Assembly: GCA_021158735.1 (NCBI GenBank)
Contig: JAGGUC010000067.1
Location: forward strand, 1 to 32,849
Direction of reading: 5' to 3'
Origin: Desulfurococcales archaeon
Lineage (GTDB): Archaea; Thermoproteota; Thermoprotei_A; Sulfolobales; NBVN01
Length of the DNA stretch: 32,849 nt
Part shown: positions 1-20,513 of the stretch, in pieces
How positions within the stretch are numbered: position 1 is the first letter of the stretch
Layout of the letters: each line of letters begins with the position of its first letter
Notes under the pieces: model-generated
The model's database searches: none
Told to the model about the DNA's origin: nothing
What the model saw: only the letters and a program-made list of their open reading frames with translations
Position numbers and translations under genes: made by a program

Positions 1-904
1 ACACAACGTATACCCGCCTTAACGTACTACACTTCTGCATACACATCCTTATGTAATTCACATAACGACTCCACTCCTCAAGTAGCACCTTCTCTAGCTT
101 TCCAACTCTGACAATAGTTATGGAGATATAGTGCCCACAAACCATAGGCGCACTTATATCAAGTAAGGAGCCAACAATCTCAATAAGCTTCTCAACATCT
201 TCTTCAAGCTTATTTCTATCTACATGACCATTGTATTCCTCTAGAACTCTCTTCAACTCGTGAAGCACTATATGTTTGTATAGCGATACATCGTCAGCTC
301 TATTGATGTACTCTATGAGTTTCCTAAACTCTTCATTCTCCTCGTAGACTTTTCGTACATACTGCATGAACTCCTTCAACACGTTAACATCCCTGCTAGC
401 GTATTCACGTGCTATAGAGATTGAGAGTAGCTGTGCTAGCCTAGAACCGAAGACAGGTTCTAGGTACTGCGAGACTGCGTATGGTGCCGCCATGAGGAGC
501 GTCTTAGCTATTACTTGGTTTAGATTAGTGGTATAGGGTATTCTAACAAGCAATACACCTCTCTCAAGGTCGAGTAGAACTCCTTCCTCACTAGACCACT
601 CTACATCTACATCATACTCAATACCGAGGCCGGGAGCAGCTGACCGCCTAGATACAAGGTTCTTCAGGTACTCCCTAACGTACTCCTTATGCTTACGCTT
701 AACCAAGTGGGAAGCCAGGGGGTAGTAGACCTTAAGCTTTACGTAGCGTATAGCATTCTCAACACTTCTAAACAGCTTCATCAACACCTTGAGGATTAGG
801 TAGATAGCAAAGATAATACCAAGTACTGTAAACAACGACCTTAGAGGCTCAGGTAGCTTATCAAGTATCTCAAGTATCCTAACAATATAGCTCAAGTCTA
901 TCAA
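1..904 (-). CDS. Hypothetical protein with N-terminal transmembrane helix (runs off the left edge; absent from the ORF track)
   Basis: Manual translation from TTG at 904 gives MIDLSYIVRILEILDKLPEPLRSLFTVLGIIFAIYLILKVLMKLF... and stays open for about 300 codons to the window edge. Confidence 0.75.
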   Translation of the reverse strand, partial: MIDLSYIVRILEILDKLPEPLRSLFTVLGIIFAIYLILKVLMKLFRSVENAIRYVKLKVYYPLASHLVKRKHKEYVREYLKNLVSRRSAAPGLGIEYDVDVEWSSEEGVLLDLERGVLLVRIPYTTNLNQVIAKTLLMAAPYAVSQYLEPVFGSRLAQLLSISIAREYASRDVNVLKEFMQYVRKVYEENEEFRKLIEYINRADDVSLYKHIVLHELKRVLEEYNGHVDRNKLEEDVEKLIEIVGSLLDISAPMVCGHYISITIVRVGKLEKVLLEEWSRYVNYIRMCMQKCSTLRRVYVV

Positions 905-967
905 GAAATCATTAACAGCAACGAATTATAAAGGATACCGGTTAATACTCATAACCTCTATACTACG

Positions 968-1076
968 TGGCATATCATACTTCAGTTAATACATGTTTTG
1001 ATAGCACTAATTGAATATCAGTTACATCTGTTTGGCATATCAGCTATATGCCAGCTAAGTTGGTTCTGGCATATGT
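968..1076 (+). repeat. Right-arm repeats (TGGCATAT motif) of the element lying left of the first att
   Basis: TGGCATATCA at 968 and 1033, TGGCATATGT at 1067, inverted ATATGCCA at 1046. Confidence 0.7.
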
Positions 1077-1120
1077 CTGGAGCCCCGTGGTCCGGGGTTC
1101 AAATCCCCGCGGCCCCACCA
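1077..1120 (+). repeat. att site: 3' half of a tRNA gene ending in CCA (acceptor 3' strand CGGCCCC-A; Pro/Trp-like, identity undetermined)
   Basis: CCCCG-TGGTC-CGGGG-TTCAAAT-CCCCG-CGGCCCC-ACCA; no 5' half upstream; 42 bp identical to 7259-7300. Confidence 0.9.
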
Positions 1121-1283
1121 CATCAAATTTATATGAATTCTGATATTGTTCTAATTGGTGGTAGTTGCCTTGTTATATCACTATTTTCAGATTGTTATGT
1201 CAGGTTCTAATGTGTAAGCTGAATTCAAAAGTGAATTCCTTGATTAGGGGTGGTGCTTCTTTGTTGACGTCAGGTTTATTGAT

Positions 1284-1823
1284 TTGAGGAGTATTCCTGA
1301 TGATGTAAGGTATAGGATATTCAACTATCTCTGGAATGTTAGGAGGGTTGGTAGTAGGAATTTAGGTATATCTTCTGCTTTAGCTAACATGGTTAAGAAC
1401 CGGAAGAGGAGAGTTACTGATAGCTTATTGAAGTGCATGTTAGAGCTACTTACACCTGAGGAGTACGCTGAGCTTGTTGAGGAAGTTACTGCTGTTAGAG
1501 TTGATTCTAATACATTTGTTAAGATTCTTGTATCAGCAGTTGCAGATCCTGCGCTAAAGCCTATCTTAGTAGAGTTCGTAAAGAATAGACTCGCGGCGGA
1601 GATGTTAGCTGAAACAACGAGGTACACGGTTACGAAGCAGGACTTGCAGGAGTTTAGGTCTGTTCTTGAGAAGAAGGTACTTGGTGAGATAATTGCGGTA
1701 TTAACAGGTCAGACAGACCTAGCTAAGGTGGAGATGGTTATCAGGCACTACTTTGGTGGATCAATAGAGAAGATGAGGGAATTTTACGATGAAAACGCGC
1801 CCCAAATATTGGAAGAAATCTAA
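1284..1823 (+). pseudogene. Internally deleted tyrosine integrase (pNOB8-type)
   Basis: N-terminal HTH region (LGISSALANMVKNRKRRVTD) resembles the N-terminus of 24929-26212; it is joined directly to a recombinase C-terminus (IAVLTGQ...VIRHY...MREFYD); the catalytic core is missing. Confidence 0.75.
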
Positions 1824-17451: not shown

Positions 17452-17574
17452 TTATACGACCAATTAATCATGTGTTAATTAAATAAAATAATTATATTGA
17501 AACTACCTGAATGTTTGGAAATACGTATTTTCGAAGTTACTTAGTTTTCATTTCTTCAAGAACCGTCAAGAACG

Positions 17575-18643
17575 TATTAGCTATTCAGATGACTACTCTA
17601 AATGCGGCAGAGTACTTAGGTATCGGGGAGATCGGTGCTATAATTCCCAGTAGTTTCGCGGACATAGTAATACTTAACGACTTCAAGGAATTCAAAGTAA
17701 GTGAAGTGATCATGGAAGGGCAACTACTCATCAAGAACGGAAAGTTCCCCCGCGGTCTTGGCCCGAGATTTAAATATCCTGACAAAGTATACAAAACAAT
17801 AAATATGAGGAAGTTAGAGTCTCCATCAGACTTATTGATTAGGGTTGGTGTAGATGCTGGCGTAGCTGAGGTTATTGCTATAAGGGTGGTACCCGGCAAG
17901 ACCGTAACTAGAAGAGACAGGGTGTTAGTGAAGGTGCGTAATAAATACTTGAGGGTTACGGAGAGTCAGGACATTTCTCATGTCTGTGTTATTGAGAGAC
18001 ATCATGCGACAGGGGGTACTGGTCGTAGATTCGTAACGGGGCTTAGTTTAAGGCGGGTGCAGTAGCTCGGAGCATAGCTCATGACACGCACAACATAGTG
18101 GTTGTGGGTAAGAATCCAGTGGACATGTATGTAGCAGTCAATGAACTATCTATGATGAGTGGGGGTATGGTGTGCGTAGTTAATGGTAGGGTCGTCAGCA
18201 GTTTCTGAGGTAAGGTTTTTTATAGGTCTGTGTTGGTCTTTAGTTAGGAAGTACCTCCTAGATGTGTCCCCTGTGCCGTTGGGGACGAAGGGTGCCCATG
18301 ACCTCCACGTGAAGCGACTTGTAGCCACAATGAAGTGTGGAGTAGAGGCACAACCCGTCCTAGCAAGACCTACATAGACCTAGGACGGGAAACGGTTATC
18401 GGGAAAGTTACACTACCTACTGCTGGACTCATGTCAGATAAGAGATTTGAGGAGGTGGCTCAGGATATAGAGGATTTTGCTGGTGTAATGGGGACTGTGA
18501 ACTTAAGTTATCATGCAGTCTTCATGAACATAGCACTGTTGACACCTCCTGTAATTCCTGAGATAAGAATAACTGACAGGGGTTTAGTCGATGCTGTTGA
18601 AGGCAGACTTATCGAGCCCGTGCTGAATTTCAAGGAGTCATAG
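17575..18643 (+). pseudogene. ade: Adenine deaminase, C-terminal half only, frameshifted and interrupted by an insertion
   Basis: AIQMTTLNAAEY, ADIVI, VIERHH, SIAHDTHN, LPTAGLMS, VIPEIRITDRGL; N-terminal metal-binding half absent. Confidence 0.85.
18192..18395 (+). mobile_element. 204-bp non-autonomous IS607-family derivative retaining the TnpB C-terminal tail / omegaRNA region
   Basis: Excision restores ade frame NGRVIGKVTLP; GG at both junctions; subterminal 18-bp inverted repeats (16/18); terminal 10-bp hairpin; peptide KYLLDVSPVPLGTKGAHD resembles archaeal TnpB tails. Confidence 0.75.
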
Positions 18644-18698
18644 AAGTTATTCAGCATTTCTGCAGAAATAATTGATGGTGACTATATACTGTACGACC

Positions 18699-20513
18699 TT
18701 AAATAAGTCCTTTAAAGAACTTCTTCATGAGGTGCGCGAGGGCTTTCCTAGAGGTGACTATGGCGTCGTAACGTACACTTAGGAGTGACCTCAGCTTAAG
18801 CGATAAGAATCTCCTGTCAGCTAGAACTATGAAGGCCCTATCACGTCCAGACCTAATGGCCCGGCCTACAGCTTGAAGAGACCTTATTGCAGCGGGAACA
18901 GCCGTGGTTAGGTCTGTAGCTAATTTGCTTCCCAGTTTCTCACTGAGGTTTCTTCGCAGGTCACTAAGGTAGTCATCAGGCTGGGGGTACGGAACACCCA
19001 TTAAGGCAACTACCTTAATTAGTGACCTGCCCTCACCATCTAAAAGCTCTATTCCTTCAGTAAACTTACCGCTTGCTACCGCGTGAATTACTGCTTTGCT
19101 GCCGCCACTGATTATTGCGTCCAGAACTTCCGCGTAAGTTGTTCCTCTACCCTCAATTACCTGCTCCTTTACGTCAACTATGTTTATGGTTACTTCATCC
19201 ATGAACTGATAGCTAGGGTACACTGCCAGTATCACGCCCTTGTCCAACGACTCATACATTGAAGTTAGTAAGTCAGCGTACTTTAAGTACATCTCCTTAG
19301 CTCTTAACCTATAACTTGATGAAACAAATGTAACAACGGCATAAAACGTATTTTCTCTGGGAAAGACATTCCCGAATTCTTCTTCAACATCAACGTACAC
19401 GGTCACCTCACCGCATACAGAATCCATTACTTCCTTTGGAGGCATGGTCCCCGACATGAGGAGAACGCCCTTAGCCTCTGACAGCCTCTCAGTAATTATG
19501 TCGTAGTTCGTGGGTATGACCTTTAACTTCCTAATACCCTCAGCTCTATCTACGACACCGTATACTTGGAAATCATTTCTCCTCACGTAGTCCAGGAACT
19601 TAAGTACCTTATTAAGTGATGAACCAAGCCTGACGAAGTCTGCAGGCCGGACAACCAACTCTCTGAGTTGCTTGAGCTTGATCTCCATTAGGGTGTCCTC
19701 CAAGAGTTGCAGGATCCCTTCTCCAGGATGTATGAGGGCTTTCTCAATCCGCCTCAAAAGCCTAGACCTTACGTTCTTCAGAAGCTCTCTTAAGCTTACT
19801 AAGTACTTAAGGACTTCCTCACTAGGGCAGAAGTGCTTTACTTCTTTGATCGCATTATCTAGTGTTAACTCATCTAACTCACCCTCTATAATGGATTGCG
19901 GATTAAGGATTGTATGAGCTTCATCAACTATAACGTAGAAGTCACTCAAGCTTAAGTCAGTAAATGCAGTTCTGAATATTTCTTCTTGAAATAAGTACGG
20001 GTACGTAACCACTACTACCTTACTGTAGTATGCCTTACCCACGAGCGCGAAGAAGGGACATACCTTAAGCTGCGTAACTATAGAGTAAACAATTTGACGG
20101 GGGTCGCTTTCACCACCCTCAAGGATACGGGTAAGCTCGTCCTGATAGGGCACGCGGTCGAGGCTACTATAGAAGTCACATAATCCTCTAGACCTTAGGA
20201 TCCTGCAGTTCACCCAGAAATCCTCAGGCCTCACCTCAGAACCCCTCAGGAGCGGGCACATTTTACGCCCGCTGTAAATGAAGCTGAAGTCATAGCCCAG
20301 TTTCCTTGCTTCACGAATTACTGGTACCATTTCATTTCTTGTTCTTACTGCGTAAAGCACTTTTTCGGCTTCTCTATGAGCGATTAAAGCAACTACGGTC
20401 TTTCCAAATCCTGTCGGTGCCTTAAGAACAATGACGCTGCCTAAGTTCTTCCTGAGAGCTGATATAGATTCCTTCTGTCCCTTCCTGAACTTCTTATAGG
20501 GAAATTCCTTCAT
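18699..20513 (-). CDS. xpd: XPD/Rad3 Fe-S DNA helicase
   Basis: FPY..FRKGQ, APTGFGKT, four Fe-S cysteines, VDEAH, MSGT, EGIE, QAVGRAIR. Confidence 0.92.
   Translation of the reverse strand: MKEFPYKKFRKGQKESISALRKNLGSVIVLKAPTGFGKTVVALIAHREAEKVLYAVRTRNEMVPVIREARKLGYDFSFIYSGRKMCPLLRGSEVRPEDFWVNCRILRSRGLCDFYSSLDRVPYQDELTRILEGGESDPRQIVYSIVTQLKVCPFFALVGKAYYSKVVVVTYPYLFQEEIFRTAFTDLSLSDFYVIVDEAHTILNPQSIIEGELDELTLDNAIKEVKHFCPSEEVLKYLVSLRELLKNVRSRLLRRIEKALIHPGEGILQLLEDTLMEIKLKQLRELVVRPADFVRLGSSLNKVLKFLDYVRRNDFQVYGVVDRAEGIRKLKVIPTNYDIITERLSEAKGVLLMSGTMPPKEVMDSVCGEVTVYVDVEEEFGNVFPRENTFYAVVTFVSSSYRLRAKEMYLKYADLLTSMYESLDKGVILAVYPSYQFMDEVTINIVDVKEQVIEGRGTTYAEVLDAIISGGSKAVIHAVASGKFTEGIELLDGEGRSLIKVVALMGVPYPQPDDYLSDLRRNLSEKLGSKLATDLTTAVPAAIRSLQAVGRAIRSGRDRAFIVLADRRFLSLKLRSLLSVRYDAIVTSRKALAHLMKKFFKGLI

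Follow-up and report, generated by a model that had tools for sequence, protein, structure and literature searches.

What is the 204-bp sequence that interrupts an adenine deaminase gene (ade) of a hydrothermal-vent archaeon, and could an element that encodes no protein still act through an RNA? We addressed this question in a stretch of 32,849 nucleotides from a Desulfurococcales archaeon (contig JAGGUC010000067.1 of assembly GCA_021158735.1; hereafter the window), in which all features described below lie on the forward strand. An original prediction, made from the letters alone, had described the insert as a mini-element derived from IS607 that might express only a guide RNA (omegaRNA) of TnpB. 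In our assessment, which carries a probability of roughly 60%, the insert (18192..18395) is a protein-less, IS607-derived mini-element whose predicted guide RNA would be used by a TnpB supplied in trans. The element keeps what the recombinase TnpA needs, namely a left end (LE) of ~50 bp and a right end (RE) with inverted-repeat sites in a terminal hairpin, together with a complete structured RNA of ~138 nt whose sequence overlaps the 3' end of tnpB.

The element, which is non-autonomous and shares its ends with full-length copies in the same genome, consists of 50 bp of LE (18192..18241), joined at 18241/18242 to the final 154 bp of tnpB. The LE is homologous to those of two full-length elements, on contigs C47 and C104, and includes the TATA-like box of tnpA, a motif of archaeal type (TTTTTTATA, 18216..18224) for which a promoter function can be proposed; it was found exactly where it had been predicted. 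Metagenome contigs of full-length copies match the window up to 18241 and then leave it, continuing from the LE into the leader and start of tnpA, and the junction is therefore fixed at this position. By alignment, the next 16 nt (18242..18257) are residual tnpB sequence, which would form the 5' leader of the RNA, and the omegaRNA-like scaffold of 138 nt follows (18258..18395). Our repeat search also reproduced the predicted inverted pair of 18 nt, in which TAGGTCTGTGTTGGTCTT (18223..18240), the LE arm with two AGGTCT-like units 11 bp apart, corresponds at 16 of 18 positions (89%) to AAGACCTACATAGACCTA (18365..18382), the RE arm inside the loop of the terminal hairpin. The arms of this hairpin, CCCGTCCTAG (18354..18363) and CTAGGACGGG (18380..18389), match at 10 of 10 positions and end 6 bp short of 18395, as had been claimed apart from a start that was off by one base. 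The units of the subterminal repeat are probable TnpA binding sites, and it fits this role that the arms at both ends vary jointly between subfamilies, with TAGGTCT.. in one and AGGTTTTTGTAGG.. in the other. Since the repeats are subterminal (starting at 32 nt from one end and 14 nt from the other), and neither terminal inverted repeats nor a target-site duplication are present, the element is not a miniature inverted-repeat transposable element (MITE) in the strict, classical sense. It does resemble a MITE in the loose sense in that it lacks a transposase, has its ends in common with an autonomous element of the same genome, and occurs at several unrelated sites.

The way in which the element entered ade is consistent with an IS607-type recombination. 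The expected GG is present at both junctions: the left flank TAGGG (18187..18191), a target-like motif, ends in the core dinucleotide (18190-18191) that is common with the right end (18394..18395), where homology among all copies stops. Excision of the 204 bp rejoins ade in frame as AAT GGT AGG GTT ATC GGG AAA GTT ACA CTA CCT (NGRVIGKVTLP), as predicted. Thus, the element was inserted at a TAGG|G site by recombination at the GG core, without target duplication. Furthermore, in a same-genus orthologue (G004, contig C87) the site is uninterrupted (..VVNGKVIGEVALP..), and contigs from four DNA runs of hydrothermal-vent metagenomes (X1, X3, X5 and X6) show loose ends and changes that cluster before 18186-18188 and behind 18395-18398, as expected of a repeated element. 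One X1 contig, with a depth of 7.3, joins 18189 to 18394 and thereby skips exactly 204 bp (equivalently 18190-18393 or 18192-18395). This presence/absence polymorphism suggests recent activity.

The original prediction had held that the insert splits ade, and this stands as far as the precision of the insertion is concerned; the gene, however, was already a remnant in this strain. Upstream of the element (17511..18191), Pfam matches cover the end of Amidohydro_1 (its ~60 last positions) and the start of Adenine_deam_C, so that the amidohydrolase domain lacks its N-terminal ~280 residues; downstream, 18396..18643 encodes the end of Adenine_deam_C (PF13382, 8.8e-18, profile positions 97-167 of 169). 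Upstream of 17584, contigs of other strains no longer follow the window, and 17549-17583 is missing from one X1 contig. In addition, the left remnant carries a 1-nt frameshift near 18053 that is polymorphic, with an extra A behind 18053 in part of the population contigs (depth 24.2 of 71 in X1, 6.2 of 19.8 in X3 and 2.1 of 2.1 in X5). In this strain, ade is an already decayed pseudogene, independent of the insertion. The orthologue in G004 likewise appears to be split into two frames.

A search of the genome's own assembly (G000; 1.25 Mb in 171 contigs, 77% complete) with 226 bases returned seven places, and among them were the sibling copies and the tnpA-tnpB parent that the prediction had called for. 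C47 has an element of 1976 bp, in which a TnpA of 210 residues and a TnpB of 449 residues without stops are enclosed by the two ends of the mini, at a distance of 1.97 kb from each other. The TnpA is a small serine recombinase with the arrangement of IS607, in which an N-terminal MerR-like helix-turn-helix (HTH_17, residues 5-50, 2.8e-15) is followed by the C-terminal catalytic domain (Resolvase, residues 65-198, 1.1e-24), and tnpB is located downstream as in IS607, its reading frame overlapping the end of tnpA. The TnpB matches PF07282 (1.1e-14) and TIGR01766 (40.4 bits, cut-off 32) and comes slightly below the cut-off of NF040570 (guided_TnpB; 97.4 bits, cut-off 100). Its low score against the NCBIfam model IS607_TnpB (NF038280; 16.1 bits, cut-off 350) shows distance, not exclusion, as this exception-type model describes proteins closely related to the reference element. 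A sequence search of PDB gave a single weak match, a Cas12m chain (E 0.0039), and the protein contains the strings GIDIN, VVLEKL and HDRD, which we take to be the three RuvC motifs. The tail of the mini corresponds in frame to the C-terminus of this protein (tblastn, 65% identity to residues 401-446, 4.9e-11), as had been proposed. In the parents, the TATA-like box is situated ~36 nt upstream of the GTG start of tnpA, and the stop codon of tnpB 11 nt before the right end.

The remaining places include a second full-length copy sharing both ends (C104), a second mini (C171) and a right-end fragment (C114). The C104 copy (L002) has a broken tnpB: an insert of ~700 bp (~636-1336, minus strand), which has its own ATG and is single-copy in G000, separates the cysteine pairs of the zinc finger, and stop codons occur in the surrounding tnpB frame. 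This insert encodes a two-motif LAGLIDADG homing endonuclease of 224 residues (PF14528, 2.3e-9; PF00961, 9.6e-6), and an Rfam scan of it for an intron gave no match.

Matches to the 204 bp are not confined to this genome but were found in 26 of 52 genomes of the taxonomic family, covering 11 of 13 genera (G000 included), and further minis occur in two other families of the class. Eight matches span the whole mini (the window, G005:C141, G037:C144, G037:C169, G039:C154, G036:C34, G032:C146 and G000:C171), and most others in the family span only positions ~67-204. For a sample of 44 related tails, 0.6-2.4 kb upstream of each locus was searched with the C47 proteins by tblastn: 13 tails have tnpB coding sequence upstream (5 of these also tnpA), 30 have none, and 1 is cut by a contig end. 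Among the 30 tails without tnpB, 28 have a left end 60-125 nt upstream, giving elements of about 200-262 bp; in 10 of these 28, the left end was missed by blastn-short and placed by alignment or core-motif pattern, so that their sizes are approximate. Minis thus outnumber tnpB-coding copies by about 2:1 in the sample.

Comparison of the deletion junctions resolved at least 7 classes, all of which keep at least 146 nt of tail and always the whole conserved block. The junction of the window mini is shared by G005:C141; junctions with ~12 extra tnpB bases are found in G037:C169, in G037:C144 and G036:C34, and in G032:C146; a longer left end is kept, in each case differently, by G039:C154, G000:C171, G051:C14 and the pair L014/L015; and a large subfamily has a junction that retains the first tnpA codons. 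The claim that tnpA and nearly all of tnpB were deleted, which brought the left-end promoter in front of the scaffold, is borne out at the level of sequence by the junction at 18241/18242, yet not as a deletion at this locus: the element is a ready-made mini of a widespread family that was inserted as such. A further case is provided by the mini of G005 (L009, C141): over 145 columns, its tail shows no difference from that of a resident full-length element (L034, C82), while its LE resembles that of the window mini and not the LE fragment L060 (C71), the sole non-mini LE found in G005, which may or may not belong to the C82 element. This identity of the tails points to recent derivation, a chimera or tail homogenisation. 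Two minis stand out for their location. A 259-bp mini (locus L015, G019:C1:126979-130117) is placed directly behind a sequence resembling a tRNA 3' end (..ggttcaaatcccaccccccgca), and a subfamily-2 mini from another taxonomic family (L072, G114:C1:774830-777969) is located inside the tnpA of another element, with a left flank ending in ..CAGGG right where tblastn matches TnpA residues 112-136.

What all these deletions spare is a folded block. Across the 44 tails, conservation begins at CTAGATGT (18258) and stops sharply at ..GGGAAACGG (18395), with 37 of 44 right ends finishing in ..ACGG and unrelated flanks beyond. RNAalifold predicted stems with compensatory changes, and the fuller structure obtained with RIBOSUM scoring comprises 40 pairs in six helices (18263-18265/18392-18394; 18266-18271/18281-18286; 18292-18297/18345-18351; 18303-18309/18336-18342; 18310-18319/18323-18332; and 18354-18363/18380-18389). 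In this structure, 92.4% of the cells are paired, compared to 38-45% in controls with partners displaced by 1-3 columns; double-sided changes affect 16 pairs and 114 cells, compared to 15-22 cells in these controls; and the covariation score was reached by 0 of 500 shuffles. The same holds for 28 minis alone (93.0% paired compared to 37-44%; 72 compensatory cells compared to 7-14), in an alignment that omits L020 and the second hit of L041, which have no recognised left end, and L011, which is cut by a contig end. Of the 40 pairs, minis form 36.9 on average, compared to 36.8 in the other 36 tails. In the window copy, 38 are formed, and its first stem, like that of L011, is fully flipped (GTCCCC..GGGGAC, compared to GAGCCC..GGGCTC or GGGGCG..CGCCCC elsewhere). 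An ATGATGA motif in subfamily-2 minis, which resembles a C box, was considered as part of a k-turn and dropped, as the CUGA partner is not conserved (present in L017, absent from L044).

A covariance model built from 39 tails (R1) matches 18258-18395 at 151 bits; of 101 genomes sampled from the class, 59 have matches, representing 30 of 45 genera, and strong ones are present in the complete genomes G098 and G079. In the genome of the window it finds 16 places, 4 of them strong; the 12 weaker ones (28-48 bits; C90, C47:4852-4994, C65, C148, C18 and 7 more) probably correspond to omegaRNAs from tnpB families further removed, for example that of a gene for 414 residues on C145. Searching Rfam with 17500-19000 at E values up to 10 yielded three chance-level matches, none of them on the element, and no Rfam family for the scaffold. 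The layout and length of the tail, its place over the 3' end of tnpB and its sharp stop at the right end are those of a TnpB omegaRNA scaffold. To the position and the right-end stop, the covarying structure and a motif at the left end that resembles a target-adjacent motif (TAM) are added.

This motif had been predicted from the G-rich left flank of the window element, and it proved to be conserved. We examined the 16 nt that precede the LE core at 35 independent left junctions, belonging to 29 minis and 6 full-length copies. AGGG is present there in 28 of 35 cases, compared to 6.3% of random 16-mers from the same loci, and AGG in 33 of 35, compared to a background of 26.8%. Thus, the flank looks like a TAM. 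The corresponding guide, whose position follows from the published layout of omegaRNAs, would be the segment TTATCGGGAAAGTTAC... taken from ade (18396..18415). In the empty allele, TAGGG directly precedes TTATCGGGAAAGTTAC, and in the occupied allele AACGG precedes the same sequence; a guide drawn from the right flank would therefore recognise the empty site only, which corresponds to the homing logic outlined in published work (PMC10055086; 10.1101/2023.11.20.567912).

We propose that the mini borrows TnpA for its movement and TnpB for its retention. In archaea, transcription starts ~25 nt downstream of the TATA box, and the TATA-like box of the window ends 34 nt before the scaffold; it follows that the tnpA box kept in the LE would initiate an RNA near 18247, an alternative source being read-through from ade, which lies on the same strand. 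Such an RNA, running through the scaffold into ade sequence, would constitute an omegaRNA with the guide given above. A TnpB made elsewhere could load it and cut the empty allele, TAGGG followed by TTATCGGG..., and repair from an occupied copy would restore the mini. In the other junction classes the predicted leader is up to ~40 nt longer. According to Nety et al. 2023 (PMC10278001), TnpB generates omegaRNA by processing the mRNA that encodes it, so that neither a variable leader nor read-through from ade would be an obstacle. The candidate partner is the TnpB of C47, the only intact close TnpB in the incomplete assembly; the protein of 414 residues on C145 is 29% identical.

Several observations weigh against this proposal. 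Promoter activity and start site are deduced from a motif, and all 12 runs listed as holding the stretch are DNA. The tail of the window mini is only 80-81% identical to that of the intact C47 element, its closest parent being C104 (85-86%), with its broken tnpB, and the inventory of TnpB proteins is partial because the assembly is 77% complete. As a single sequence, 18247-18395 has a fold that surpasses shuffles only to a modest degree (z -1.76; 10 of 200 shuffles fold equally well), and the preference for the sense strand is modest (92.4% paired compared to 85.5% antisense). The covariation among minis may stem in part from descent from different parents rather than from selection after the deletions. 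The joint that represents the empty site is a single contig with a shorter side of 27 nt and thus weak when taken alone. Moreover, the two mismatches of the window copy, 18315/18327 (C.A) and 18317/18325 (A.C), fall into one 6-bp hairpin, are uncompensated and are derived relative to the nearest relatives, which indicates that this copy may be beginning to decay. Finally, in the orthologous minis of G037 and G036 (L010/L018), the element is 90.8% identical, compared to 98.8% and 97.0% for the flanks over 600 nt.

The last two points, together with the stops and the LAGLIDADG insert in the nearest parent and an ade gene so truncated and frameshifted that its site is under no host selection, are what one would expect if a genuine IS607-derived mini were by now functionless and passively carried in a dead gene. 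We regard such an inert relic as unlikely, while taking it seriously. The window copy still has all but two of its 40 pairs, including the fully compensated flip of a stem; a related TnpB and TnpA are intact on C47; the site is polymorphic in the population; and the fold is kept across the family of minis. In the G037/G036 pair, identity is 96.8% in the left end and 87.9% in the tail, and of the 17 differences in the tail, 9 are on paired columns, 8 of which keep pairing, with two full pair swaps. These differences fit selection for the fold; gene conversion also could explain them, since a paralogue in G037 (L035) has a similar hairpin allele, and for this reason we no longer consider the pair as proof of compensatory evolution after insertion. 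A different explanation for the conserved block is that ~150 bp of tail are needed in cis as DNA by TnpA, for synapsis or excision. The loop of the terminal hairpin does contain inverted-repeat motifs that match the left end, and survivorship of mobile copies alone could produce a family in which every mini keeps at least 146 nt. However, a sister family of protein-less minis of ~214 bp has the same LE (first ~47 nt) and RE (last ~42 nt, with the terminal hairpin and ..GGGAAACGG) as well as the AGGG left flank, but an unrelated interior of ~125 nt, which is itself conserved and has its own TTATAAAC box. Because this family shares only the ends, the ends alone define what the transposase family moves. 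It comprises 10 of 12 fetched matches to the RE only, from five genomes (L079, G025:C1:84400-85200; L074-L078, L080, L082, L083 and L085), occurs also at L046:1555-1772, and was not found in G000. In agreement with this, wild-type excision of an IS607 element of Clostridium botulinum is reported to require no more than 40 bp at the LE and 60 bp at the RE (10.1101/2023.11.20.567912). Furthermore, four minis (L017, L042, L053 and L056) lack 9-10 nt of the terminal loop, corresponding to one repeat unit (columns 156-165 of alignment A1), and keep all stems; these minis may be immobile and yet fold. Compensatory changes and 210 G-U cells also fit a folded single strand and not a duplex bound by protein. 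The scaffold thus appears not to be needed as DNA for mobility, and we give this alternative very little credence.

It is likewise hard to credit that the RNA is made but re-used, as a small regulatory RNA or as the partner of a nuclease-dead TnpB-like regulator, rather than for homing. Domesticated relatives of TnpB that employ guide RNAs in transcriptional control have been described (10.1101/2023.11.30.569447), the minis outnumber the coding copies, and some minis are located inside genes or beside tRNA-like sequence. Nevertheless, each site has a different guide, determined only by where the element was inserted, and the TAM-like flank and GG core fit a homing layout; no inactivated TnpB turned up, and none was searched for. 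Use of the predicted guide RNA by a TnpB in trans therefore remains our preferred reading. Tentatively, and with less confidence than would make it probable, it might be extended to the family as a whole: the minis of LE and scaffold would be self-sustaining, guide-only satellites in hyperthermophilic archaea, arising by recurrent fusion of the tnpA TATA box to the scaffold, moved by TnpA, retained through homing by TnpB, and with a scaffold matched to the resident TnpB, of which the identical tails in G005 would be a case.

Elements of comparable design have been described in bacteria. Altae-Tran et al. 2023 (PMC10691335) report that standalone omegaRNAs without effector or transposase are mobilised and that compatible effectors can use them in trans, and the protein-less palindrome-associated transposable elements (PATEs) of IS200/IS605 often encode omegaRNAs that need TnpB in trans (Meers et al. 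2023, PMC10055086). By these descriptions, they resemble the window mini in that effector and transposase are absent, ends and scaffold are kept, and coding copies reside in the same genome. In contrast to these bacterial elements, of which the PATEs belong to IS200/IS605 and move as single strands by a Y1 TnpA (PMC10055086), the window mini is archaeal and belongs to the serine-recombinase IS607 type, with its GG core and AGGG flank; its family is further distinguished by the fusion of the tnpA TATA box in front of the scaffold and by its origin through several different deletions. The IS607 element of C. botulinum integrates at TGGG with strict dependence on GG, and its CboTnpB needs a TGGG TAM (Zedaveinyte et al., 10.1101/2023.11.20.567912). 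As reported there, it is similar to the window element in its serine TnpA, the GG core at both junctions, the lack of terminal inverted repeats and target duplication, the short inverted motifs at both ends, the omegaRNA at the right end and the G-rich 4-nt target (TGGG compared to AGGG). It differs in being full-length and in containing a group I intron, while the window element is a protein-less 204 bp, and the C47 TnpB is a distant relative.

The archaeal element ISC1733 is of the type that combines a serine tnpA with tnpB. SMN1, a non-autonomous element of 320 bp in Sulfolobus islandicus, depends on the ISC1733 transposase (PMC3718332) and, by description only, can be likened to the window mini as a crenarchaeal, protein-less element that uses the transposase of a resident insertion sequence. 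Judged by title and opening of the abstract, none of the papers listed for SMN1 and ISC1733 deals with TnpB guide RNAs. For the thermophilic SisTnpB1 of S. islandicus REY15A, the omegaRNA is reported to lie over the 3' end of tnpB and the RE, with a left-flank motif as TAM (10.1101/2023.03.06.531077). By that account, SisTnpB1 is of the IS200/IS605 type, with an AT-rich TTTAA TAM and a gene-linked omegaRNA, in contrast to the IS607 mini with its AGGG flank. Our literature search, which left most subscription journals and supplements outside, found no description of archaeal IS607-derived minis that bear an omegaRNA. Guide-bearing elements without protein are already known as such; what stands out here is their abundance, their repeated origin and the fusion of promoter and scaffold in an archaeal IS607 lineage.

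In genome annotation, the covariance model distinguishes minis that bear a guide from fragments of tnpB pseudogenes. Moreover, the family represents a natural deletion series that maps three parts of a thermophilic TnpB system, namely the minimal LE (~40-60 bp), the minimal RE (~45 bp) and the complete scaffold (138 nt), and this map of minimal parts, together with the AGGG TAM-like motif, could help to define a compact thermostable editor. If the RNA is not used, the insert in ade is a common kind of transposon relic within a gene that is decaying. If the minis are satellites of the kind outlined above, elements without any protein product would be under selection at the level of their guide RNA. 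And if the RNA is made and used, RNA-guided homing would be parasitised by elements that consist of only ends and a guide scaffold, which would be shown for archaea and for the serine-recombinase IS607 branch, where this has been little tested.

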